Below are positions 6,928 to 34,602 of a DNA stretch of 35,324 nt, in pieces (within the stretch, counting starts at the first letter, position 1; every line of letters begins with the position of its first letter). The position numbers and the translations under genes are program-made. Source of the stretch: a virus (taxonomy: Duplodnaviria > Caudoviricetes); the IMG/VR virus record IMGVR_UViG_3300036855_000043, positions 1 to 35,324 of that record; one strand, written 5' to 3'. Under the pieces are notes generated by a model. That model saw only the letters and a program-made list of their open reading frames with translations. It did not search any database and was not told the DNA's origin.

Positions 6928-7109
6928 CCAGCCGCGACTGCCTCAACGCCGACGGCTCGCCGAAGCGCAAGTACCGCTCGGCGTCGGCAGCTGACAAGAT
7001 CGCCCGCCGCCAGAACCACGACCGCCCGTTCGAGGCGCCGGTTCACGCCTACCTGTGCCCGGGCACCGAGCACTGGCACATCGGCCATCCGCGGGAGGGG
7101 CTCGCATGA
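6924..7109 (+). CDS. Small putative zinc-binding phage protein
   Basis: KRKYRS..AA..IA..HAYLCPGTEHWHIGH pattern; ATGA overlaps. Confidence 0.7.
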   Translation: MTSRDCLNADGSPKRKYRSASAADKIARRQNHDRPFEAPVHAYLCPGTEHWHIGHPREGLA

Positions 7110-7585
7110 CCGTCGTCCTGGCCATCGATCCCGGCTCGCAGCTGTCCGGCTGGGTCGGTTATGAGGTTGGCGACAGCCGGCCGATCATGGCGCATGGCAA
7201 GCACCTCAATGAGCTCGTCCTCGCCGTCGTCAAGGAGACCCGCTTCGACGTCCTCGCCGTCGAGTGGATGGAGAGCTCGTTCGGCTCGCACATCGGCAAG
7301 GAAGTGACCGAGACGCTGTGGTGGGTCGGCCGCTTCTGCCAGGCGGCCGAGGAGCGCGGGATCCCGTTCGCCCGGGTGGGCCGCAACAAGCTGCGCCACC
7401 ACCTCACCGGCAAGGCGACCGCCAACGACACGATGATCCGCGGCGCCCTTGTTGACCGATTCGGTGGGATTGGCGGACGTTCGGCAGCGGTCGGGACGAT
7501 GAAGGCGCCCGGCCCGCTCCACGGCATCGCCGCCGACGAGTGGCAGGCACTCGCCGTGGCCGTCACCTGGGCGGACCAGCGATGA
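7106..7585 (+). CDS. RuvC-like Holliday junction resolvase
   Basis: MTVVLAIDPGSQLSGW, LAVE, TGKATAND, ADEWQALAVA match RuvC catalytic motifs; GGAGG RBS. Confidence 0.82.
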   Translation: MTVVLAIDPGSQLSGWVGYEVGDSRPIMAHGKHLNELVLAVVKETRFDVLAVEWMESSFGSHIGKEVTETLWWVGRFCQAAEERGIPFARVGRNKLRHHLTGKATANDTMIRGALVDRFGGIGGRSAAVGTMKAPGPLHGIAADEWQALAVAVTWADQR

Positions 7586-7869
7586 GCAAGCCCCGGCACT
7601 GCAAGGCCTGGCTTTGCCGGCCGCTGAACGTGGCGCCCGAGGTCAAGCCCGGTGAGTTCGCGTGGATGGTGGCCGAGATCAAGGTCCACCACGAGTCGTG
7701 CCCGTTCTGGTCGCCGCCTCAGCCAGAGCCCGGTGAGCGGCTTGAGTTCGGTGTCCACCGCCAGCTCGTCGCCGACGCGGAGACCGCCCCGGCGTGGACG
7801 CCGTTGGCCGATCTGCGGAAGGCCAAGGAGAAGAGCTACAAGCACTTCGTTCGGGGCGACGACCAATGA
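7582..7869 (+). CDS. Hypothetical protein
   Basis: ATGA overlaps at both ends; GC3-rich codons. Confidence 0.65.
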   Translation: MSKPRHCKAWLCRPLNVAPEVKPGEFAWMVAEIKVHHESCPFWSPPQPEPGERLEFGVHRQLVADAETAPAWTPLADLRKAKEKSYKHFVRGDDQ

Positions 7870-8042
7870 CCCGCCCGCCCCGCTACTACTTCCGACCGCG
7901 CCTCGTCGCGCTCGCTCTGTGCTGGCTGCTCGGCCATCGCTGGGTCGGGACCTGGCCCGACTTCGAGACGATCTCGATCTACCCACGGCCGCGGCGCTTT
8001 CACTGCCGGCGCTGCGGCGAATGGACGTTCTGGCACCGATGA
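7866..8042 (+). CDS. Small Cys/His protein
   Basis: LCWLLGHRW...CRRCGE pattern typical of small prophage proteins; ATGA overlaps. Confidence 0.7.
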   Translation: MTRPPRYYFRPRLVALALCWLLGHRWVGTWPDFETISIYPRPRRFHCRRCGEWTFWHR

Positions 8043-8221
8043 TCGAGCTCGTGACGGTCGACGAGGCAGCTGCGCGGCTGCGCATCTCGCGCCGATCGGT
8101 TTACCGGCTGATCGGCGAGGGCAAGCTGCGCCCGGTCCACCCGACGCCAGGACGCACGCTGCTGACGAGCCGCGAGGTCGACGCCTACATCGCGTCGCTC
8201 GACCGCCGGCGTGTCGCATAG
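8039..8221 (+). CDS. xis: Excisionase (MerR-like HTH)
   Basis: MIELVTVDEAAARLRISRRSVYRLIGEGKL..., directly upstream of the integrase. Confidence 0.85.
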   Translation: MIELVTVDEAAARLRISRRSVYRLIGEGKLRPVHPTPGRTLLTSREVDAYIASLDRRRVA

Positions 8222-8230
8222 GATGGCGTC

Positions 8231-9268
8231 GTGGCACGTCGTAGCCGGCACGGCGAAGGCACCTGGTATCCAGATCGCGTCAACGGTCGCTACGTCGCGA
8301 AGTACCGCGGCCACAAGGCCTACGCCAAGCCGAACACCATCGAGGGTGCGAAGCTCACGCTCGAGGCGCTGCGGCGCAAGTACGGTCGCAACGACTACAG
8401 CCCCGCCAAAGGCTCGGTCGACGACTACCTGCGCGACTGGCTCGACACGCTGCAGGGCGTCGAGGCCTCGACCAAGGTGAGCTACGCCGGCCACGTCAAC
8501 CACCACATCAGTCCCCTCATCGGCACGATCCCGGTCGTCGACCTGCGCCCGTCGGACGTCCGCGCGCTCATCGCCGATCGCCTGGCCGCCGGGCTGTCAG
8601 CTGCGACCGTGCGCCGGATCCACTCGACGCTCCACGCAGCGCTCGGCCAGGGCGTGCGCGAGCGGACGCTGCACGACAACGCCGCCCACGGCGTGACGCT
8701 GCCGAAGGTCGAGGAGAAGCTCGTGCCGGCGATGACCGAGGCGGACGCCGAGGCGATCCGCGGCGCGGTCAAGGGCACGTTCCTCGAGGCGCTCGTCGAG
8801 CTGCTCCTCGGTTCTGGCCTGCGCCTCGGTGAGGCGCTCGGCCTCAACCAGGACGACGTCAAGGGTCGCGTCGTCTGGGTGCGCAAGACGAAGGGCCGCA
8901 AGCGTGCCGTGGCCATCAGCGAGGACGCGGCCGCGGCGCTCGCTGAGCACATCGCCGAGCTCAAGGTGCGCGGCCCCGAGGAGCCGGTCTTCTTCGGCCC
9001 GCGATCGGGACGCCGACTCAACGGCTGGACCGTGACTCACGCCTTCCCGCGGATCCTGCAGGACGCTGGTCTGGCGCGGCTCAACCCGCACGGCACGCGG
9101 CACGGCGTGGCCACGATGCTGCTCGCCCAGGGCGTGCCGATGAAGCACGTCAGTGAGCAGCTCGGCCATCGATCGATCACGACGACTGACCGCTTCTACG
9201 CCCACGTGGCGCCCGAGCACCTCCAGGGTGAAGTGCAGCTGCTGAACCGGAGGAAGAAGGCAGAGTGA
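8231..9268 (+). CDS. int: Tyrosine integrase
   Basis: N-terminal arm-binding RRSRHGEGT; catalytic GLRLGE, K, HGTRH, LGH, Y (DRFYAH). Confidence 0.95.
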   Translation: MARRSRHGEGTWYPDRVNGRYVAKYRGHKAYAKPNTIEGAKLTLEALRRKYGRNDYSPAKGSVDDYLRDWLDTLQGVEASTKVSYAGHVNHHISPLIGTIPVVDLRPSDVRALIADRLAAGLSAATVRRIHSTLHAALGQGVRERTLHDNAAHGVTLPKVEEKLVPAMTEADAEAIRGAVKGTFLEALVELLLGSGLRLGEALGLNQDDVKGRVVWVRKTKGRKRAVAISEDAAAALAEHIAELKVRGPEEPVFFGPRSGRRLNGWTVTHAFPRILQDAGLARLNPHGTRHGVATMLLAQGVPMKHVSEQLGHRSITTTDRFYAHVAPEHLQGEVQLLNRRKKAE

Positions 9269-10321: not shown

Positions 10322-10660
10322 GTGGATGAGGCGACGTCTCGGCGGGGGAACGACTACGTCACGGTCCGTGAGTGGGCCCGGGGACGAGCCGACGACGAGC
10401 GCCAAACGCAGCGCGACCGCGATGTCGCGCTCGGCTTGAGCGAGGAACGCATCATGGCCGCCCTCAACACGCACATCCGCATCAGCCAGGACGCGCACAA
10501 GGCCCAGGACGACCGCATCGTCAAGCTCGCCGACGGCATCGACCACATCGACTCGGCGCTCGACCAGCAGCGCGGCGCGCGGAACATCCTGCTTTTCCTA
10601 GTCGGCACAAGCGTCGTCCAGGTCATCGCCCTGGTCATCACCATCCTGGTCGTGCACTGA
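10322..10660 (+). CDS. Coiled-coil protein with C-terminal TM helix (lysis-cassette membrane protein)
   Basis: Heptad-like middle and hydrophobic tail ILLFLVGTSVVQVIALVITILVVH; start codon uncertain. Confidence 0.75.
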   Translation: MDEATSRRGNDYVTVREWARGRADDERQTQRDRDVALGLSEERIMAALNTHIRISQDAHKAQDDRIVKLADGIDHIDSALDQQRGARNILLFLVGTSVVQVIALVITILVVH

Positions 10661-11391
10661 TGAACGAGAACGCGGTGGTCAAGCCAGGCGCCATCCAGAC
10701 CGTGACCGTCGGGGCGTTCTCCATCACCGGCACGCCGGCGCTCATCGCCAAGATCAGCGACATGGCCAAGCACGTTTCCGACGTGCTCGGCGATCGCATC
10801 AAGAACGTCCAGGTCGGCTTCTACTCGGCGGCGCTGATGCCCAGGCGCGCCGATGGCGGGCCGTCGGTCGGCTACACGCCGAACCCGCACAAGATCATGC
10901 TCTGGCAGGCGCTCGTGCACCACGTGCCCGAGACGTTCGCCCACGAGTGCTGCCATGTCCTCGACGGCCAGTGGATGACCACCGAGCAGCGCCAGGACAT
11001 CATGGCCCTCGAGGTGCCGCCGGCGACAAAGTGGCAGTCGGCCGACTACGACCACGAGGGCTGCGAGAACTTCGCGTGCTACGGCTCGGGCGCCCTCTTC
11101 GGCGTGCAGCCTGCCTGGCAGCGCTTCTACCTCGACCCTGTCCCGACGTCGGCGTGGCCGCAGCTCGCCGCGATGGCCCTCAAGGATTACGGCGCGCCGG
11201 TCCCGGTGCCTCCGCCCGATCCGACACCGCCGGATCCGGTCGACCTGCAGGCCCAGATCGACGAGCTGTCCGCCCAGCTCACGCAGTCGGCGTCCGCACT
11301 GCAGTCGTGCCAGAACGATCGCACCAACGCCCTGAACACCATCGCCCAGCTCAACACCAAGATCGCCGCGGCGAAGACGGCGCTGACATGA
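10660..11391 (+). CDS. HExxH zinc metallopeptidase (zincin) with Pro linker and C-terminal coiled coil, in the endolysin position
   Basis: TFAHECCHVLD at 10942-10956 plus downstream CENFA; PVPPPDPTPPDP linker; TGATG and ATGA overlaps. Confidence 0.8.
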   Translation: MNENAVVKPGAIQTVTVGAFSITGTPALIAKISDMAKHVSDVLGDRIKNVQVGFYSAALMPRRADGGPSVGYTPNPHKIMLWQALVHHVPETFAHECCHVLDGQWMTTEQRQDIMALEVPPATKWQSADYDHEGCENFACYGSGALFGVQPAWQRFYLDPVPTSAWPQLAAMALKDYGAPVPVPPPDPTPPDPVDLQAQIDELSAQLTQSASALQSCQNDRTNALNTIAQLNTKIAAAKTALT

Positions 11392-11717
11392 ACGAGCCAC
11401 TTGTCGTCGCGGCGACTCCCGAGCTTGATTGGATGTCGATCGACGACGTGATCTGGCTGTCTTGGATGAAGCCCGCTCCGGAGCCGCTCGCCGCCCGGTC
11501 AGACGAGGCGCACGGCATTCTCGACGGCAACCTGCTCGAGGCACACCACCCGGTCGAGCCCGTGAAGCGCAAGCATGGCCTGGGCTGGATCGACGTGACG
11601 TCCGGTACGCGACACAAGATCGTGCAGCTTGAACCGCTGACGATCACGGCGTCGATCGCCTGCGAGGGCTGCGCGTTCCACGGCTTCATCACCGACGGTC
11701 ACTGGGTGCCGGCGTGA
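11388..11717 (+). CDS. Small Cys/His protein (DUF6527-like)
   Basis: C-terminal PLTITASIACEGCAFHGFITDGHW motif. Confidence 0.7.
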   Translation: MNEPLVVAATPELDWMSIDDVIWLSWMKPAPEPLAARSDEAHGILDGNLLEAHHPVEPVKRKHGLGWIDVTSGTRHKIVQLEPLTITASIACEGCAFHGFITDGHWVPA

Positions 11718-11860
11718 TCGCCACCCTGCTGCTCGGCCTGCTCGTCCTGGTCCTGCTGCTCGCGGGCTTCGCCATCGTCGATAGCAACGGCCGCTCGCCT
11801 CTCGGCTGGGCGGTCGCAATCGTCGCCATTGTGCTCATCGTCTGGAGGTTGCCGTCATGA
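11714..11860 (+). CDS. 48-aa two-TM membrane protein (holin-like); not in the ORF track
   Basis: MIATLLLGLLVLVLLLAGFAIVDSNGRSPLGWAVAIVAIVLIVWRLPS; GTGA and ATGA overlaps. Confidence 0.75.
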   Translation: MIATLLLGLLVLVLLLAGFAIVDSNGRSPLGWAVAIVAIVLIVWRLPS

Positions 11861-12159
11861 CGCTCAGACAGGATCCCGCGACGCTCACCCGCAGCCAGCG
11901 CATTCGCGTCTGGATCGGGACGTTCATCGTCGACTACGTCGAGACATTCCTCGGCCTCGTGCCCGCGCAGCTGCTCATCGCGTTCGCGGTGCCGACCAGC
12001 TCGATCACCGACGCAACGGCTTCGGTGTACGCGTGGGCCATCCAGCTCGGTGCGCCGGCACTCGCCGCCCTGGTCTCGGCCGGTCGACGAGCTCTGGCGA
12101 ACGCTTGGCCGGCGCTCAAGGCGTTCTTCGCGTCCGGCTTCGGCGCCATCAAGTCGTGA
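11857..12159 (+). CDS. Putative holin / membrane protein
   Basis: Two or more hydrophobic segments, 100 aa, GGAGG RBS, in the same cassette. Confidence 0.65.
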   Translation: MTLRQDPATLTRSQRIRVWIGTFIVDYVETFLGLVPAQLLIAFAVPTSSITDATASVYAWAIQLGAPALAALVSAGRRALANAWPALKAFFASGFGAIKS

Positions 12160-12735: not shown

Positions 12736-13035
12736 GCGCGACCAATGGCAGCGGCCGGCGACGGCGACCGCAAGGGCGAGGCAGATGCCCGGGGCCGACA
12801 GCTCCGTTAGGCGCGCCTCGTGAACGTCCAGCCCGCCCATCCGCCGGCACCCCCGAAGCCGCCTCACCCGGTTGGCCACCACCACCCGACGCACGGCAAG
12901 CACGGCCAGCCACCGGGTCATCACGCGCCCTCCCACCCATCCAGTGGCGGCAGCAGCCCGGCCAGGCCAAACCGGCCGCCAAAGCCGCACAAGCCGCCGC
13001 ATCCCGCTAAGCAGTCAGCACCGCTCGGAGTGGAC

Positions 13036-13305
13036 ATGACGAATCAGGGCGAACAGCCAGACCAGATCGACCAGGCAGTAGCGGCCGCCGGCCAGGTGCG
13101 CGGCGTCGTCACCGAGGTGATGCTCACGCGACCGAACGGCGACCAGTGCAAGGTCGGTTTCGTCGTCCCGGAGGACCTGCAGCCGGGCGACATCCTGGCC
13201 ATCTCGGAATCGCTGAACCGACACCTGCGTGCCGTGCTCGCGATGGCCGACGCCAAGCGCGGCCCGGGTCTCCTCCTCGCTCGCGGGGCGCTGCCCAAGA
13301 ATTGA
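13036..13305 (+). CDS. Hypothetical protein (frame open upstream to 12820 as a Pro/His-rich segment)
   Basis: GGAG before ATG 13036; GC3-rich codons; TTGA overlap with the HNH gene. Confidence 0.7.
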   Translation: MTNQGEQPDQIDQAVAAAGQVRGVVTEVMLTRPNGDQCKVGFVVPEDLQPGDILAISESLNRHLRAVLAMADAKRGPGLLLARGALPKN

Positions 13306-20668: not shown

Positions 20669-21520
20669 GTGTCCGTCGCCCAGACGAAGCTCGTAGGAGC
20701 TCTCAACAACTCGGCCACGAGCCTCACTGTCTCCGATGCGCTCGGCTTTGCGAGCTCGATGGAATCGGACGACCTGATCCAGATCGATGATGAGTACCTG
20801 CTCGTCACGGCCGGTCTCGGCACGACGGGCTGGACCGTCAGCCGCGGCTATGCCGGATCGGCGGCAGCGTCCCACCTTGACGCCGCGACGGTCACGCGTC
20901 TCGAGCGCGGCTACACCGATGCCTCGCGCATCAACAAGATGGCCAAGGCGGACATCGCCGACGCCTCGTACCTGCAGGACTGCGCCGACCAGGCCAACAG
21001 CTGGCTGAACAGCGAGGTCGGCCAGTTCTACGGCCCGTCGACGGACACGCAGCGGACCTACGACGTCGAGTCGATCTCGAAGACGCTCAAGATCCCGGGC
21101 GGCATCCGCTCGCTGACGACGCTCGAGATCAAGACCTACACCTCGGAATCGACCTGGCACGCGGTTGCCGCCGGCGACATCTTCCTGCGGCCGCATCCCT
21201 GGGACCGGCTCGATGGCCTCGTGGCGGACAAGATCGTGCTTGCGGACTTCCCGACCGGCCAGTACTGGTTCTTCTACTACGGCAGCGACGTCGTCCGGCC
21301 GACGGGCGTCTTCGGGCCGCCCGAGCCGCCGAACACGCTGCGGCGCATCGCCGATTCGGTCGGCTGGTGGCTGTACCAGTCACGCGACGCCGGCGGCACG
21401 GGCATCATCGGCCAGCTCGACACAGGCGAGCTCGTGGTCAACCACGTGCTCACCGCGATGGACGTGCGCACCATCCAGCTCTACCGCAACTCGTCCGGCA
21501 CGTACAGCTACGTCGGCTGA
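20669..21520 (+). CDS. Head-tail adaptor with an extra N-terminal beta domain
   Basis: Helical connector motifs (LQDCADQANSWLNSEVG, PNTLRRIA..WLYQSRD) and synteny. Confidence 0.75.
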   Translation: MSVAQTKLVGALNNSATSLTVSDALGFASSMESDDLIQIDDEYLLVTAGLGTTGWTVSRGYAGSAAASHLDAATVTRLERGYTDASRINKMAKADIADASYLQDCADQANSWLNSEVGQFYGPSTDTQRTYDVESISKTLKIPGGIRSLTTLEIKTYTSESTWHAVAAGDIFLRPHPWDRLDGLVADKIVLADFPTGQYWFFYYGSDVVRPTGVFGPPEPPNTLRRIADSVGWWLYQSRDAGGTGIIGQLDTGELVVNHVLTAMDVRTIQLYRNSSGTYSYVG

Positions 21521-26125: not shown

Positions 26126-26749
26126 GTGGCGCGATCGAAGGTCCCGAACACCAACGGCACGGGCGATACCAACTGGGACACGTTCGCCCGCGTCTATGAC
26201 GGCGTTACCACGGTCCAAGAGCTCTACGTTCAACGGTCTGAGCCCGCCAACGCGACCTATGACGCCGTGGCGACGCTCGTCCTGACGACGACGGGGACAG
26301 ATCATCTGTTGGCCTTGGCCGGCGACGGGATCAACTACACACGCCTCAAGCAGATCTCTGTTGAGCAGAGCCTCGGATCAACGGCGGGCCTCGCCGATCT
26401 GCGCCTGTATAGGACCTCCTCGCTGCCCGTCGTCGGCGGCGGCACGACGATCGTGCCACGACCACGCGATACGAGCGATGCGGCCTACGGGGGCGCGTGC
26501 ATCTCGCGACCAGGCACAAAGGGCACGGAGGGCGTGCAGCTTCTCCAGAAGCGCCTCTACCTCGTCTCGACTGCGGCGATCGGCGCGCAACCGAACCGCT
26601 GGGACTGGTATGCACACGAGGATGATGGACTGAAGCCAATCATCATCGGCCCAGCCACGACGGACGGCATCGCCCTGAAGATCGTTAGCGGCCTCTCGGG
26701 TTCTGAGGTTGACGTCACCTTTACCTTCACGGTCGACAGCTCGCTCTAG
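26126..26749 (+). CDS. Minor tail / structural protein
   Basis: GAGGT RBS; beta-rich; directly after the tape measure gene. Confidence 0.65.
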   Translation: MARSKVPNTNGTGDTNWDTFARVYDGVTTVQELYVQRSEPANATYDAVATLVLTTTGTDHLLALAGDGINYTRLKQISVEQSLGSTAGLADLRLYRTSSLPVVGGGTTIVPRPRDTSDAAYGGACISRPGTKGTEGVQLLQKRLYLVSTAAIGAQPNRWDWYAHEDDGLKPIIIGPATTDGIALKIVSGLSGSEVDVTFTFTVDSSL

Positions 26750-26752
26750 GCC

Positions 26753-29335
26753 GTGGGCAACACCCCGCTCTCGACGAACGTCTACGTCACGGACAACGCC
26801 TACGACACGCCGACGCTGATCGGCTGGGCGGCAGAGGCGTTGTCGCGCATGACGACGAGCATGGACACGCTCTTGGCCGGCGGACGGGCCGATATCGTCT
26901 TCGCCACGCCCAAGCAGATCAAGGCGCTGGGCGGCGTATGGGGCTTCACGAACACCAGCACCCGGCAGTCGCACGTCAATAACTCGCTGACGAAGGCGCA
27001 GACCGAGTACACGGTGCTCCACGAGCTCTCGCACATCGTCGACCCGGACACGCTCAACCACACCAGTCGCGCCGCGATCGCGGGGCTGATGCATCCCTCG
27101 GTGAACACCGCCACCTCGGGCTTCTGGGGCAACGGCACGGCCCAGAACGCACCGGCTGAGTGCTACGCCAACACCTTTCCGCAGGCCTTCACCGACCTGG
27201 GCGACGTCGCGGGCTCGTACTACACGCGCACCATCAACTCATCCGACTTTGGCACCTACCGGACCGACATCACGGGTTCGGGGGTGCCAACTTCTCTGTC
27301 TCTGGCGTCGATCGCCAACTCGGGTGCGTCGAACGTCAAGTACAGCGGCACGCCGACGGGCCTGACAGTCGGAGACTGGATCCAAATCGACACGGGCTCA
27401 AACGCGGAAGTGACGCAGATCACCTCTCTCGGGACGTCAGGCTCTGGCGGAACCGGCATCGGCGTCAGTCCTGCGCTGGGCTTCACCCATCAGGCGGGAG
27501 CGGCGATCGTCGAGACCAGCGCCCCATCTGTCGGCTCCGGGACCGGGGCAACGGGCTTCGGCGTCTACTCGCTGACCGTTCACGGCGTGCAGTACATCGG
27601 CCAGGTCCCATCGAGCTCGATCCGCATCGAGGAATCCGGCTCCGACGCGATCGCCACCTTCGAGTTCCTGAACGAGATCGAGGATCCGGACAGCGACCTG
27701 CAGATCGCCGGCGTGGGCAACGGTTACGACGTCCCGGCCGGGACCGAGTTTCCCGACGACCAAGTGATCCTGTCGCGTGTCGACACCGGCTGGCGCGTCT
27801 TCGGCGGCGTGCTCACCGGGGCTACCCGAGCGCATATGGCGGGCCCCGGCATCTCGCAGGCCATCCGCTGCGTGTCCTATGACTCGTGGCTCGATCGACG
27901 CTCCATCCCGGCATGGTGGACGACCGGCTCAGGCGCGCAGAGCGGGACAAAGATCAGCGACGACCGCCTGATCGTCGAGAACATCATCCTGCAGGACTCG
28001 GCGGGCAAGGTCGGCGGCGGCGTGGGGCTGATCGCCAACGACACCTACGTCAAGTCGACCAACGTCGCGATGCCGAAGCTCAACCTGCCCGACGGCACGC
28101 TGCGCGACCACATCCGCGCGGTCGCCGACGCCGCGGCCACAGCTGCGGATCCCACGCCGCGGCGCGCGTATGTCGATTTCTTCAAGCGTGTCCACTACTT
28201 CAAGGGCAACGAGGGCAACCCCGCGCCGTATCGCATCGGCGACGCGGTCTACGCGTCGACCGTCCAGGCGACGGCCGGCCTCGTGTCGTACTGGCCGCTC
28301 AACGAGGTGGGCGGCTCGAGCTGGTACGACGCCAAGGGCGGCCACCACTTCGCCATCTCGGGCTTCCGCGTCGTCGGCATCACCGCCGGCGTCGTCAACC
28401 AGCCGCAGACGGCCGCCACGTACTTCGCCGGCGCGACATCGGGCCTGGCGAGCTCGGCTGCCCTGCACCCGGGCAATACGTTCTCGGTCGAGCTCTGGTT
28501 CCAGCGCAACAAGACCGGCACCGAGCAGGTGCTCCTAGACGCCGGAACAGCCGACTACCAGATCGAGTTCGACTCGGGTGACCACATCAAGGTCCTCAAG
28601 AAGGGCACGGGCGCCGACTTCACGACCACCGCCACGTTCACCGACACGAACTGGCACCACCTGGTCGTCACGCACTCGGGATCCGCGACGCACGTCTACG
28701 TCGACGGCAACGACAAGGCCGGCACGGCGGCGCTCAAGAGCCTCGCGCCATCCACGAACAACCTATTCGTCGGCGAGCAGTCGGACGGCACGCTCAAGTT
28801 CAACGGCTCGCTGCAGCACCTCGCCTTCTACAGCGTGGCGCTGGCCGGCGCGACCGTGACGGCCCACTACAACGACGGCATCACGCTCGTGCCCGACTAC
28901 ATCGAGTTCGACACCGACTACAACACCGCTGTCTCATCGGTCTACATCCGCGGCGCGAACCCAGCCGGCACGGGCTGGTCGACCTTCAACGGCGTGCGCT
29001 CGCCGTATGGCGCGAACGCGATCATCGACCGCCAGGACTCGGACGCCGCGGCAACCAAGGCCGCGATCGAGACGGCATTCCTCAAGCGCGACGGCGCGAC
29101 CGTACAGGGTGGCTACTTCGAGATCACCGGCTACGACGGCTGGCGCGCCGGCCAGACGGTCAGCGTCGACGATGCGGGGCTGAGCGTGCTGGGCTCGTGG
29201 GAGATCAAATACATCCAGGGCGACGTGCAGCAAGAAGGCTCGGGGCTCATCACCTGGCAGGTCCACTTCGGCACAATGCCCTGGCGGGGCACGTTCGACA
29301 TCCGGCGCAAGAACCGGCGCCGGTCCAACAACTAG
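26753..29335 (+). CDS. Large tail-tip protein: N-terminal zincin domain, hub-like region, inserted LamG/ConA-like domain
   Basis: TVLHELSHIVD at 27020-27034 plus AECYA; VFGGVL and YVDFFKRVHYF hub-like motifs; LVSYWPLNE, FSVELWF, WHHLVVT, VYVDG, FNGSLQHLAFY (LamG). Confidence 0.85.
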   Translation: MGNTPLSTNVYVTDNAYDTPTLIGWAAEALSRMTTSMDTLLAGGRADIVFATPKQIKALGGVWGFTNTSTRQSHVNNSLTKAQTEYTVLHELSHIVDPDTLNHTSRAAIAGLMHPSVNTATSGFWGNGTAQNAPAECYANTFPQAFTDLGDVAGSYYTRTINSSDFGTYRTDITGSGVPTSLSLASIANSGASNVKYSGTPTGLTVGDWIQIDTGSNAEVTQITSLGTSGSGGTGIGVSPALGFTHQAGAAIVETSAPSVGSGTGATGFGVYSLTVHGVQYIGQVPSSSIRIEESGSDAIATFEFLNEIEDPDSDLQIAGVGNGYDVPAGTEFPDDQVILSRVDTGWRVFGGVLTGATRAHMAGPGISQAIRCVSYDSWLDRRSIPAWWTTGSGAQSGTKISDDRLIVENIILQDSAGKVGGGVGLIANDTYVKSTNVAMPKLNLPDGTLRDHIRAVADAAATAADPTPRRAYVDFFKRVHYFKGNEGNPAPYRIGDAVYASTVQATAGLVSYWPLNEVGGSSWYDAKGGHHFAISGFRVVGITAGVVNQPQTAATYFAGATSGLASSAALHPGNTFSVELWFQRNKTGTEQVLLDAGTADYQIEFDSGDHIKVLKKGTGADFTTTATFTDTNWHHLVVTHSGSATHVYVDGNDKAGTAALKSLAPSTNNLFVGEQSDGTLKFNGSLQHLAFYSVALAGATVTAHYNDGITLVPDYIEFDTDYNTAVSSVYIRGANPAGTGWSTFNGVRSPYGANAIIDRQDSDAAATKAAIETAFLKRDGATVQGGYFEITGYDGWRAGQTVSVDDAGLSVLGSWEIKYIQGDVQQEGSGLITWQVHFGTMPWRGTFDIRRKNRRRSNN

Positions 29336-29344
29336 GAGCTTGAT

Positions 29345-30202
29345 GTGTCGCTCGAGCGCATCCAGGACGCCTTCCCTGACTTTTCCGATGGCGTGTCGCA
29401 GCCGACGATTGACGATCAGGGCAACGAGCTGCTGACCACGGACAGCGCCGGCCAGGGCCCCCTCTCGGGATCACGCCTGCGCTCGGAGTGGTTGCGCGGC
29501 GTCGCCAACGGCGACTTCCACGATCCGCCAACCGACCCGTCGCGGGCGATCAACGACGACGTCGACGACGCCGACTACAACCCGCTGCCAGGCTGGACGC
29601 TGGTCGACGCGAGCAACGGGGCGATCAGCTGGTGGTGGGTCGCCGACAGCAACACCGGATCGGGCGCCCACGTCGAGGCGCGGGTGCCGGCCGGGCTGAG
29701 TGGGACGCTCAGCTCGTGGCTCACGCAGAGCGTCCCGGTGCGCTCGACGCCGCTGGGCGACCAGACCATCTCGGCACTCGCCGCCCTGAGCGCGGACGCG
29801 GGCAGCGCCGGCTCCACGGACCTGGCGAGCCTGACGATCAGCCAGGTCGACCCGAGCAGCGCAGCCATTGCCAGTGTCGGCACGGTCGAGGGTGACGCGA
29901 CGCTGGCCGATGCGGCACTCGCCATCCAGGCGCCGACAGCTGAGACAGCGCTGGCGGCCAACGCTGCCGCGGCCGTGCTGTCGATCGGTGTCCAGGTCAG
30001 CACGTCGAGCGCGCACACGGTCACGTGGTACGAGGTGCTGGCGGTTTATCCGCCGTCAGAGACGCTGCTGCCCGACATCTCGGACCTGGGCGGCCTGGCT
30101 GCCTACGACACGCCCGAGACCGCCGCCGGCGGCAAGCGCATCTATGTCGGCACGGACACGCCTACGGGCATGTCCGAGGGCGACATCTGGATAAAGAGCT
30201 GA
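29345..30202 (+). CDS. Minor tail protein
   Basis: VANGDF carbohydrate-binding-like start; C-terminal IYVGTDTP..EGDIWIK fibre motif. Confidence 0.75.
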   Translation: MSLERIQDAFPDFSDGVSQPTIDDQGNELLTTDSAGQGPLSGSRLRSEWLRGVANGDFHDPPTDPSRAINDDVDDADYNPLPGWTLVDASNGAISWWWVADSNTGSGAHVEARVPAGLSGTLSSWLTQSVPVRSTPLGDQTISALAALSADAGSAGSTDLASLTISQVDPSSAAIASVGTVEGDATLADAALAIQAPTAETALAANAAAAVLSIGVQVSTSSAHTVTWYEVLAVYPPSETLLPDISDLGGLAAYDTPETAAGGKRIYVGTDTPTGMSEGDIWIKS

Positions 30203-30205
30203 GCG

Positions 30206-31426
30206 ATGCCCACGATCGGAAGCAGTTCCAAGCCGACCCACTACTGGTGGGCCTTCGGCGTCAGCTCGACCAACCAGGAAGCCGAGCTGCTGACGATGCC
30301 CGAGGACGGCACGATCAACACCCTCGGCCAGTGGATCGGCGGCTGGAACACGACGTGCCGGACGAAGCTGTGCATCTGGGACAGCAGCGGCGCGCTGCTC
30401 GGCCAGAGCGCGCAGTTCACGGTCGCCGATAAGGGCGACGGCGCGGACGGCAACGTCGATCTCTACACCGCCGACCTGACCGCCGGCGTGCATCTCTCCG
30501 CCGGCGACACGTTCTTCGTCGGTTTCTCGCGCAACCCGGCAGACAAGCACCAGGTCTCGGGCGGCAACGCGGGCAGCGGACCGCACTACGACAACACCAA
30601 GGCGTCGTGGCCGGACGTGCTCAGCGGCGCCACGACCGTCGCCCGGCGCATCGGCTCGTATGTCGCCGACTACACGCCCGAATCGGGCGGCGGCGGTGGC
30701 GGCGGAAGCACAGGCGCCTATCCCACCGCGGACTCAAAGAGTGGCACGCCGGCGTCGTCCACCTCGTGGACGGTGACCTACCCGTCAAGCATCAGCGCCG
30801 GCGACCTGATCCTCGTCGCGGCGACCGTGAGCAACGACACGACGATGAGCGCCAGCGGCTTCACACTCCTGCTCGATGTCGGGAGCGGTGCGTCGATCGC
30901 CCACCTGAAGGTGCTGGGCAAGGTCGCCGCGGGCGGCGAGTCCGGGACATTCACGCTCACGCTCGGCACCGCCCGCGCGGGCGAGTGGCAGGCCATCCAC
31001 ATACCGGCCGCGTCGTGGTACGGCGGCGCGCTGTCGGCGGGCAGCACGATCAACGCGAGCACCGGCTTCAACGCGGCCACCAGTTCCAGCGGCAGCGGCA
31101 ATGCCGACCCGCCCAGCCTCACGCCCGCGTGGGGTGACGGAGACAACATCTGGCTGGCCATGCTGGCCGTCTTCGGCAGCTCCGGCATCGCGATCTCTGG
31201 GGCGCCGTCCGGCTTTGGCGACCTGGCGACGGTCTACGCCGCGGCGGCCACGCATGGCAACGCGATCGCCGATGAGCTGCTCGATGCGACGAGCCTCGAT
31301 CCGGCAACCTTCACGGTCAGCCCGGCACCGGGCAACAGCGTCGCGGCGACCATCGCCATCAGGCCTAACGCACCAGCCAACGGCATCTACATCTACCGCT
31401 CGGGCGCCTGGACGCTCGTGAGCTAG
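30206..31426 (+). CDS. Tail fibre / receptor-binding protein
   Basis: Two beta-rich domains joined by a poly-Gly linker; AGDLILVAA motif; last late gene. Confidence 0.75.
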   Translation: MPTIGSSSKPTHYWWAFGVSSTNQEAELLTMPEDGTINTLGQWIGGWNTTCRTKLCIWDSSGALLGQSAQFTVADKGDGADGNVDLYTADLTAGVHLSAGDTFFVGFSRNPADKHQVSGGNAGSGPHYDNTKASWPDVLSGATTVARRIGSYVADYTPESGGGGGGGSTGAYPTADSKSGTPASSTSWTVTYPSSISAGDLILVAATVSNDTTMSASGFTLLLDVGSGASIAHLKVLGKVAAGGESGTFTLTLGTARAGEWQAIHIPAASWYGGALSAGSTINASTGFNAATSSSGSGNADPPSLTPAWGDGDNIWLAMLAVFGSSGIAISGAPSGFGDLATVYAAAATHGNAIADELLDATSLDPATFTVSPAPGNSVAATIAIRPNAPANGIYIYRSGAWTLVS

Positions 31427-33639: not shown

Positions 33640-34602
33640 ATGGTTGGACTGATTCAGGATCGGCTCGAGAAGCTGCCCAAGATCGTCCTGCGCTCGGGCG
33701 CAGGCCCAGCGCCGAACGGCAAGGTCGACGGCTGCGTCATGCAGGTTGTGGCCTGGGTCGCCGGCGAGCCGTGGAGCGACCACCCGGCGTGCGCCAGCCC
33801 GCTGCTGACGAGCTTCTGCATCCGGCTCAACGACCGCTGGTCGGACGAGGACCGGCAGCTGCTCAAGCCGTTCATCCCGCGCCTGGTCGGGACCAACCTG
33901 GGCAAGGCCGTCGACAAGGAGCGCGCCTACCTCATGGCCGACTGGGCGGTGCGCTCCTACGCCCCGCGCTGGCTGCGCAAGGCAGGCATGGACGACGAGG
34001 CAGCAAAGCTCGAGGCGCTCGCGCCGCTGACCGACGCGGCGAGCTCGCGCAAGGCGCGCACGATCACCCAGGCGACGCGCGAGGTCGCGTGGGCCAGGCG
34101 AGAGGCAGTCCGCGAGCTGATCCGGGCCAAGGTCCGGGCTGAGCTCGAGGCGCAGGGAATCGCTGTCGCTGACGCTGCCGCTGACGCTGCCGCTGCCGCT
34201 GCCGCTGCCGCTGTCGCTGCCGCTGCCGCTGTCGCTGTCGCTGCCGCTGACGCTGCCGCTGCCGCTGCCGCTGCCGCTGTCGCTGCCGCTGCCGCTGTCG
34301 CTGTCGCTGTCGCTGTCGCTGCCGCTGCCGCTGTCGCTGTCGCTGCCGCTGCCGCTGCCGCTGTCGCTGCCGCTGCCGCTGTCGCTGTCGCTGCCGCTGT
34401 CGCTGTCGCTGCCGCTGTCGCTGTCGCTCGGTCGAAGGGCGACTACTGGGCGCAGTACAACGCCGCCTATAAGGCCGCGAAGCCTCAATTCGAGAAGCTG
34501 TATGCCGAGGTTGCGCACGAAGTGCGCGACGAGGTCTTACAGCTGCTCGACCGCCTGATCGAGGTCGGCAAGCCGGACGCACCAGCCGCAGTCGCGGCAT
34601 GA
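33640..34602 (+). CDS. Conserved hypothetical protein with an Ala/Val/Asp repeat tract
   Basis: GCVMQVVAWVAGEPWSDHPACASP..IRLND motif; strong purine-rich RBS; ATGA overlap with the next gene. Confidence 0.85.
   Translation: MVGLIQDRLEKLPKIVLRSGAGPAPNGKVDGCVMQVVAWVAGEPWSDHPACASPLLTSFCIRLNDRWSDEDRQLLKPFIPRLVGTNLGKAVDKERAYLMADWAVRSYAPRWLRKAGMDDEAAKLEALAPLTDAASSRKARTITQATREVAWARREAVRELIRAKVRAELEAQGIAVADAAADAAAAAAAAAVAAAAAVAVAAADAAAAAAAAAVAAAAAVAVAVAVAAAAAVAVAAAAAAAVAAAAAVAVAAAVAVAAAVAVARSKGDYWAQYNAAYKAAKPQFEKLYAEVAHEVRDEVLQLLDRLIEVGKPDAPAAVAA
34162..34428 (+). repeat. Coding hexanucleotide array (GCTGNC)x44
   Basis: Units GCTGCC, GCTGTC, GCTGAC encode Ala-Ala, Ala-Val, Ala-Asp. Confidence 0.95.
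34461..34586 (+). repeat. 126-bp exact direct repeat, copy 2
   Basis: Identical to 1-126. Confidence 0.97.

Follow-up and report, generated by a model that had tools for sequence, protein, structure and literature searches.

In this study, the N-terminal domain of a probable tail protein (residues 1–176) and the free-standing protein in the endolysin position of the same phage (10660–11391) were confirmed, on sequence grounds, to be homologous HExxH...E zincins. The window, that is, the whole stretch of DNA analysed here, is the entire virus record IMGVR_UViG_3300036855_000043 (35,324 bases, 67.8% GC), which carries an integrase, a terminase, a portal, a prohead protease, a capsid and tail genes. 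Its completeness estimated by CheckV was 43%, and a search of its ends found no terminal repeat. The DNA runs holding the window were from soil, and no RNA runs holding it were listed. Two further open reading frames were noted in the window: a 161-aa frame with a His/Pro-rich N-terminus that precedes the small terminase (12820–13305), and a 320-aa frame with a long Ala/Val low-complexity run arising from a tandem repeat, whose N-terminus matches PHROG 13065 (33640–34602). The features of the lysis cassette and of the tail module are collected in Table 1.

Table 1. Zincin-bearing genes of the window and their neighbours in the lysis cassette and the tail module.
Feature	Coordinates	Strand	Evidence and remarks
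Gene preceding lysis zincin, 112 aa, membrane segment at C-terminus	10322..10660	+	
Free-standing gluzincin in endolysin position, 243 aa	10660..11391	+	HECCH residues 95–99 = 10942–10956; Glu136 = 11065–11067
109-aa soluble protein within cassette	11388..11717	+	PHROG 15183 (unknown function), 2e-4
48-aa two-helix membrane protein, holin candidate	11714..11860	+	
100-aa hydrophobic protein, holin candidate	11857..12159	+	a single segment above threshold; no family match
Tape measure protein, 546 aa	24483..26123	+	PHROG tail protein match, 0.0065
207-aa minor tail gene between tape measure and tail zincin fusion	26126..26749	+	gene order; no family match
N-terminal gluzincin domain of tail protein, residues 1–176	26753..27280	+	HELSH residues 90–94 = 27020–27034; third-ligand Glu136 = 27158–27160
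Small beta-rich domain, approximately residues 177–256	27281..27520	+	PHROG 1302 'distal tail protein', E = 1.1e-5
Probable tail hub (Tal-like), N-half	27554..28240	+	by eye
LamG/concanavalin-like domain inserted in tail protein	28433..28858	+	Pfam PF13385, E = 2.6e-22; PHROG 701 virion structural protein, 2.2e-6
Probable hub, C-half	28880..29335	+	by eye
Pair of genes after tail fusion (285 and 406 aa), probably minor tail or fibre	29345..31426	+	no family match

The first-pass annotation had related the tail N-terminus to the lysis-cassette enzyme by eye, and the question of homology was decided by a family test. A profile of 27 relatives of the tail domain, which was gathered from the tail domain alone and contained no row of the lysis protein, found the lysis protein at E = 2.8e-16 (scaled to 1.8e9 sequences). 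When the profile was restricted to 10 tail fusions, the E-value was 8.4e-5. The five blocks that had been matched by eye (GFT/GYT, TVLHELSHIVD/TFAHECCHVLD, LNHTSRAAIAGL/MTTEQRQDIMAL, FW/KW and PAECYA/GCENFA) occupied identical columns in a 30-row family alignment, and the proposed relationship was thereby upheld. In the direct comparison of the tail domain with the lysis protein, BLASTP gave E = 0.023 over 29 aa, and hhalign of three tail sequences with three lysis sequences gave a probability of 10.8% (E = 0.0028). On their own, the pairwise BLASTP and the small hhalign comparison were too weak, and we rejected them as proof. The two proteins were 15% identical, and for each of them this was the minimum among its 29 comparisons. 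In the ESM Atlas, both domains had the same top cluster (71 members, commonest phylum Chloroflexota) and matched the same 177-aa model, with TM of 0.70 and 0.72.

When a profile of the tail domain and two close homologues was searched against 1.84 billion proteins, there were 26 hits, without the lysis protein: seven long fusions (435–1143 aa), two shorter fusions, 15 free proteins (192–471 aa), one fragment and one false hit. The two shorter fusions (P0018 and P0022) were labelled 'tail' by eye, and a Dit-like C-terminus common to them and the long fusions was not significant. P0009, a 103-aa fragment, was omitted, and P0025 was rejected as a false hit through a Cys-rich repeat. H90, E91, H94, W125 and E136 were invariant in 49 of 49 rows, a conservation that is partly circular because the rows were picked by profile or by a motif holding the HExxH, with W125 and E136 lying outside that first motif. 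The same five residues were intact in 15/15 tail-type rows, and an Asp followed the HExxH by three residues in 45 of the 49 rows. Neither window domain had a convincing family match in Pfam, PHROG or NCBIfam. The tail domain reached PF06114 (Peptidase_M78) at E = 0.26, below the cut-off, and the lysis zincin had no match to PF06114 (M78) in Pfam; for ATLF (PF07737), the best match was E = 0.21, under the cut-off and in 2/21 members. No signal-like N-terminus was found in the 41 stored family proteins checked.

The fold models were of low confidence. The AlphaFold models were built from 3-row alignments and had pLDDT of 43 and 50; the HExxH lay on a helix in both (helix 81–96 and 91–100), and the region of E136 was under pLDDT 50 in both. 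With these models, Foldseek gave no hit at E ≤ 0.001 and weak gluzincin hits at E of approximately 0.1. Other hits of the fold searches were to coiled coils. The ESM Atlas clusters of both domains were ATLF/M90-like, and the ESM Atlas models matched Peptidase_MA_2/M61/M1/ATLF models at TM of approximately 0.6. The nearest solved relatives by sequence were proteases, namely IrrE (E = 0.007) and PPEP-1 (0.03).

The family zincins are joined to LamG, Ig/Fn3, SLT-like or coiled-coil partners, and none lies in a large multi-effector protein. P0021 carries an SLT-like (transglycosylase-like) domain at E = 5e-4, just under the cut-off, and P0028 has a related segment. A C-terminal domain of approximately 110 aa (e.g., L028 6400–6738) is common to the chromosomal zincins of the P0016 clade and the zincin–SLT protein P0021 (E = 3e-21); it had no Pfam match and is a candidate wall-binding domain. 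Other members were also observed: P0029 and P0030 are free proteins ending in a hydrophobic membrane anchor, not a coiled coil, and a distant cellular homologue in G440 (L057 1435–2010) has an apparent signal peptide and adjoins a CAP-like secreted protein.

The tail ORF (26753–29335) encodes 860 aa and is the second gene after the tape measure. The protein was placed in the tail on the basis of gene order and its PHROG and Pfam matches. Its central and C-terminal parts follow a pattern seen by eye, which is probably that of a Tal-like hub; this hub part had no match in Pfam, PHROGs, NCBIfam or the PDB. The LamG domain likely binds carbohydrate, to judge from its sequence, and in cultured phage genomes the protein was matched through LamG only. 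The small beta-rich domain is common to other virion proteins and stands behind the zincin in most long fusions. The same domain was observed at the N-terminus of the probable head–tail adaptor of the window (20669–20910) and behind the tail zincin (27281–27520). The tape measure was said in the first-pass annotation to be without lytic transglycosylase or M23 motifs, and indeed no lytic-domain match was found for it in Pfam, PHROGs or NCBIfam.

The lysis protein consists of a catalytic domain, a Pro-rich linker and a long C-terminal helix (193–242 in the model). Its domain had no match in cultured phage genomes, and the zincins had no amidase, glycosidase, M23, M15, CHAP or NlpC match, that is, no known muralytic catalytic domain. 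The lysis zincin gene of the window (10654–11391) and that of locus L002 (7587–8324) were 92% identical in DNA, and the holin candidates and head genes of the two phages differed. Compared with the L002 copy, the 10660–11391 gene had 36 synonymous and 15 non-synonymous codon changes. From these sequences, we read the zincin gene in the window and L002 as a recent single-gene swap.

The locus scans with the first motif recovered true members in 3/3 viral, 3/12 genome and 8/12 metagenome loci, some of which were redundant; the other 9/12 genome and 4/12 metagenome loci, as well as L054, were false. L004–L006 were rejected as unrelated ImmA-like fragments, and the single-protein scans and the A1/A6 locus scans gave few matches. 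Tail fusions lay within a tail module in all four loci read (window, L003, L007 and L033). Their carriers sit after the tape measure, as virion lysins do, and have minor tail matches in PHROG. The tail zincin rides on at least three unrelated scaffolds. Both zincin forms were present in 3/3 phage records holding both modules, namely the window and two further phages, G814 and G004, so that the pairing noted in the first-pass annotation recurs. G814 (CheckV completeness 41%) has a lysis gene 94% identical to that of the window; its head genes differ, and its tail carrier is an Ig-rich protein of 1032 aa. G004 is a 48.4-kb record (CheckV 100% complete) whose adaptor is SU10-like; it encodes very large virion proteins, and its tail carrier has 1705 aa. 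Side observations were made in three of these loci. Among the tail-completion genes of G814, a third HExxH protein of 160 aa (L003 4207–4689) had no family-profile score and no Pfam match. A 259-aa segment of the 1705-aa protein of G004 (L007 7909–8685, minus strand) resembles a GH25-type barrel by eye, with a D-I-E motif, and had no match in Pfam, PHROGs or the PDB; if it is muralytic, one tail protein would bear a zincin and a glycosidase. In L009, a GDSL esterase gene (7062–8633) lies between the portal and the prohead protease of a fragment that also has a lysis zincin.

Free copies were flanked by genes of small membrane proteins in seven distinct loci (window, L002, L007/L050, L009, L013, L016 and L018), where they stood either behind the tail fibres or ahead of the terminase. 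Two of the neighbours had weak holin matches (PF05105, 8.8e-4; PHROG 9752 holin, 0.0019). No known lysin domain was found by Pfam in the predicted genes scanned of the window, G004, G814 and the G003 prophage; these genes were picked by a codon-bias heuristic that small or frameshifted genes may escape, and Pfam misses divergent lysins. G001, G002 and the G003 prophage had the free copy only (the G003 assembly is frameshift-rich), and approximately six free copies stood alone in chromosomes without a nearby holin candidate (L023, L026, L028, L061, L068 and a broken copy in G757). The family is rare in cells, with 1/301 genomes in the class of G002, 4/301 in its family, 4/32 in its genus and 4/301, three of them weak, in the class of G003. 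This rarity fits a phage-borne gene with stray remnants.

These contexts bear on the idea that the family is a cytoplasmic regulatory protease of the IrrE/ImmA kind whose presence beside lysis and tail genes is incidental, the true lysin having escaped recognition. Peptidase_M78 matches, weak in 10 of 21 members and over the cut-off in one of them, speak for it, as do the lone chromosomal copies without an export signal. However, the M78 matches cover the HExxH stretch only, no HTH fusion or repressor neighbour was found in the phage loci, and the slot between membrane genes recurs in the seven loci with differing neighbours. We regard a regulatory role as very unlikely.

In a tree of 42 rows, from which nine near-duplicate rows had been dropped, the main tail fusions formed one clade (12 rows, 99/98), and three other tail-type rows grouped apart (93/93). 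All five lysis-slot rows lay to the same side of one branch (12 rows, 94/84), and the SLT-like fusions were in neither the tail clades nor the lysis-slot clade. By the tree, the tail and lysis copies are separate old clades, and the zincin may have been joined to tail proteins on two occasions. A recent duplication within the phage was ruled out by the separate clades together with the lowest pairwise identity.

The prophage-bearing genomes were those of an Anaerolineaceae, a Chloroflexia and a Solirubrobacterales bacterium. By RpoB, G001 and G002 were 97% identical, and G003 was 55%. G001–G003 are hosts of relatives of the window phage; all three had murA, murF and PBP matches (murA being split in G003) and no SLH match. 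On these matches, a peptidoglycan-free host was rejected for G001–G003. The class of G002 would fit Ca. Limnocylindria as described in PMC10608941, and a preprint reports peptidoglycan genes in that lineage.

We put at even chances the proposal that the two members of this gluzincin family both cut peptide bonds in the host peptidoglycan, with the free copy as endolysin and the tail copy as virion lysin. The free zincin would be released through the holin, the tail-fused zincin would open the wall locally during DNA entry, and the LamG domain would keep the tail at the wall during the enzyme's action. We infer a zinc-dependent activity, a virion location, holin dependence, a peptidoglycan substrate and this holding role of LamG. 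The free copy is most simply taken as an endolysin because of its signal-less N-terminus, which is expected of a holin-released endolysin, its Pro-rich linker and long helix, its position in the endolysin slot, the lack of another lysin and the walled hosts of its relatives. Its tail homologue would most simply be a virion lysin, given the site intact in every tail-type row and the LamG neighbour. Three points suggest peptidoglycan as the substrate: the wall genes of the hosts, the SLT-like fusion and the failure to find another lysin. Against a peptidoglycan peptidase are the nearest solved relatives, IrrE and PPEP-1, which cut proteins, and the lone chromosomal copies without a holin candidate; the argument from the SLT fusions is weakened by their position outside the lysis-slot and tail clades. 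The paired role is opposed by the G003 prophage, which has a lysis copy and in which no tail copy was found. With the window and G814 less than half complete, a lysin may also lie in the missing DNA.

An unlikely alternative is that the envelope is indeed the target of the two copies at entry and exit, but that the bond cut lies in an envelope protein (a surface-layer, wall-anchored or wall-building protein) instead of in peptidoglycan. The nearest characterised zincins are proteases (IrrE and PPEP-1, with the ATLF/M90-like clusters), and some Chloroflexota have protein walls. Two studies point the same way: VgrG2b, a spike-fused HExxH enzyme, lyses without peptidoglycan hydrolase activity (PMC6899460), and a phage-derived metzincin sensitises Listeria to lysins via a protein substrate (PMC8235301). 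In contrast, peptidoglycan synthesis is encoded in all three genomes that have lysis-slot copies, SLH domains were not found in them, and no separate muralytic enzyme was found in the complete phage genome G004, where something must still cut the wall. The SLT-like fusion also argues for peptidoglycan.

It has also to be considered that the free copy is the lysis enzyme and that the tail domain has other phage proteins or its own carrier as targets, in maturation or self-release, or cuts a host protein inside the cell. The zincin domain is N-terminal, whereas tip lysins such as Tal of TP901-1 are C-terminal; the Tal peptidases are M23 domains. The separate clades of the tail and lysis copies indicate that their jobs may have split. 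Zincins of phage polyvalent proteins have been proposed to process themselves, and one of their clades has an Asp at +3 (PMC5512222), as do most rows here. Nevertheless, we consider such a role quite unlikely, since carriage on at least three unrelated scaffolds is more in keeping with a cargo facing outwards than with a maturase specific to one scaffold, a prohead protease is already encoded by both siphoviral genomes, and the closest kin of the tail domain are free lysis-type proteins, not polyvalent domains.

Returning to the two zincins as endolysin and virion lysin, we lean slightly towards a broader view in which, among phages infecting Chloroflexota-like bacteria of soil and freshwater, a gluzincin stands in for every known type of endolysin and also serves, on several unrelated tail proteins, as the entry enzyme. 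This would hint that the wall of these uncultured hosts has an unusual bond or layer. If true, a gluzincin in the endolysin slot adds a catalytic class and explains phages without an annotatable lysin, and an enzyme of approximately 170 aa becomes a small probe of the poorly known Chloroflexota wall. Its presence on tails as well would make it possible to ask directly whether the phage breaks one and the same bond on entering and on leaving.

The literature compared comprised PMC10608941, 10.1101/2021.08.23.457424, 10.1101/2025.05.26.655371, PMC5380687, PMC6899460, PMC12352652, PMC5512222, PMC11667670, PMC1796659, PMC7650644 and PMC8235301. The phage wall peptidases in these papers were of LAS/M23, CHAP or NlpC types, and tail endopeptidases of phages have been catalogued (PMC5380687). 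A full-text search of open-access papers, a set that most subscription papers lie outside, listed no HExxH...E endolysin or virion lysin. Three possible precedents were set aside: archaeal Woldo is M23, motif 3 of TM4 has the LAS fold and is not an HExxH precedent, and Cluster AZ phages have an HExxH protein that is SprT-like.

Some described systems resemble the present family in part. Like the tail zincin in its proposed role, the virion lysins of siphophages (Tal of Tuc2009/TP901-1 and motif 3 of the TM4 tape measure) have an endopeptidase domain on a tail protein and a monoderm host; in contrast, TM4 motif 3 has a LAS fold with HxH, whereas the tail zincin is HExxH...E, N-terminal and without an M23, M15, CHAP or NlpC match (PMC5380687, PMC1796659, PMC11667670). 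VgrG2b of Pseudomonas aeruginosa is likewise an HExxH metallopeptidase on a tail-like spike acting on the envelope, a likeness by description alone; it is a T6SS effector with a C-terminal enzyme domain and an immunity gene, and is described as not a peptidoglycan hydrolase (PMC6899460). The MPTases of polyvalent proteins share the phage HExxH, the distal Glu and, in one clade, the Asp at +3, but they lie in large injected multi-effector proteins, whereas the present zincins occupy the lysis slot or form part of structural tail proteins; the His conserved in the Asp-bearing clade was not seen here, and the published MPTase alignments might include the clade found here (PMC5512222). IrrE/ImmA (M78), PPEP-1/ATLF and M90 have a gluzincin-type site and weak profile and structure-feature matches to the family, but these matches are weak or motif-limited, and the family has no HTH and no signal peptide. 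The closest system in design is T4, whose gene e endolysin and tail lysozyme gp5 use one catalytic family for exit and entry in the same phage, as the window pair would (PMC7650644). The T4 enzymes are lysozymes superimposing at approximately 1 Å, whereas the window enzymes are 15% identical HExxH...E metallopeptidases, carried on probable hub and Ig/Fn3 tail proteins (PMC7650644). The first-pass annotation had suggested that a virion-borne protease opens the layer that the lysis protease destroys, a design it did not recognise as described. The shared envelope job is consistent with the common family, the intact site, the lysis-slot context and the pair in two more phages, and the novelty of the design did not hold. 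The paired entry and exit design is already known, and it is the gluzincin family in that role which appears to be new.
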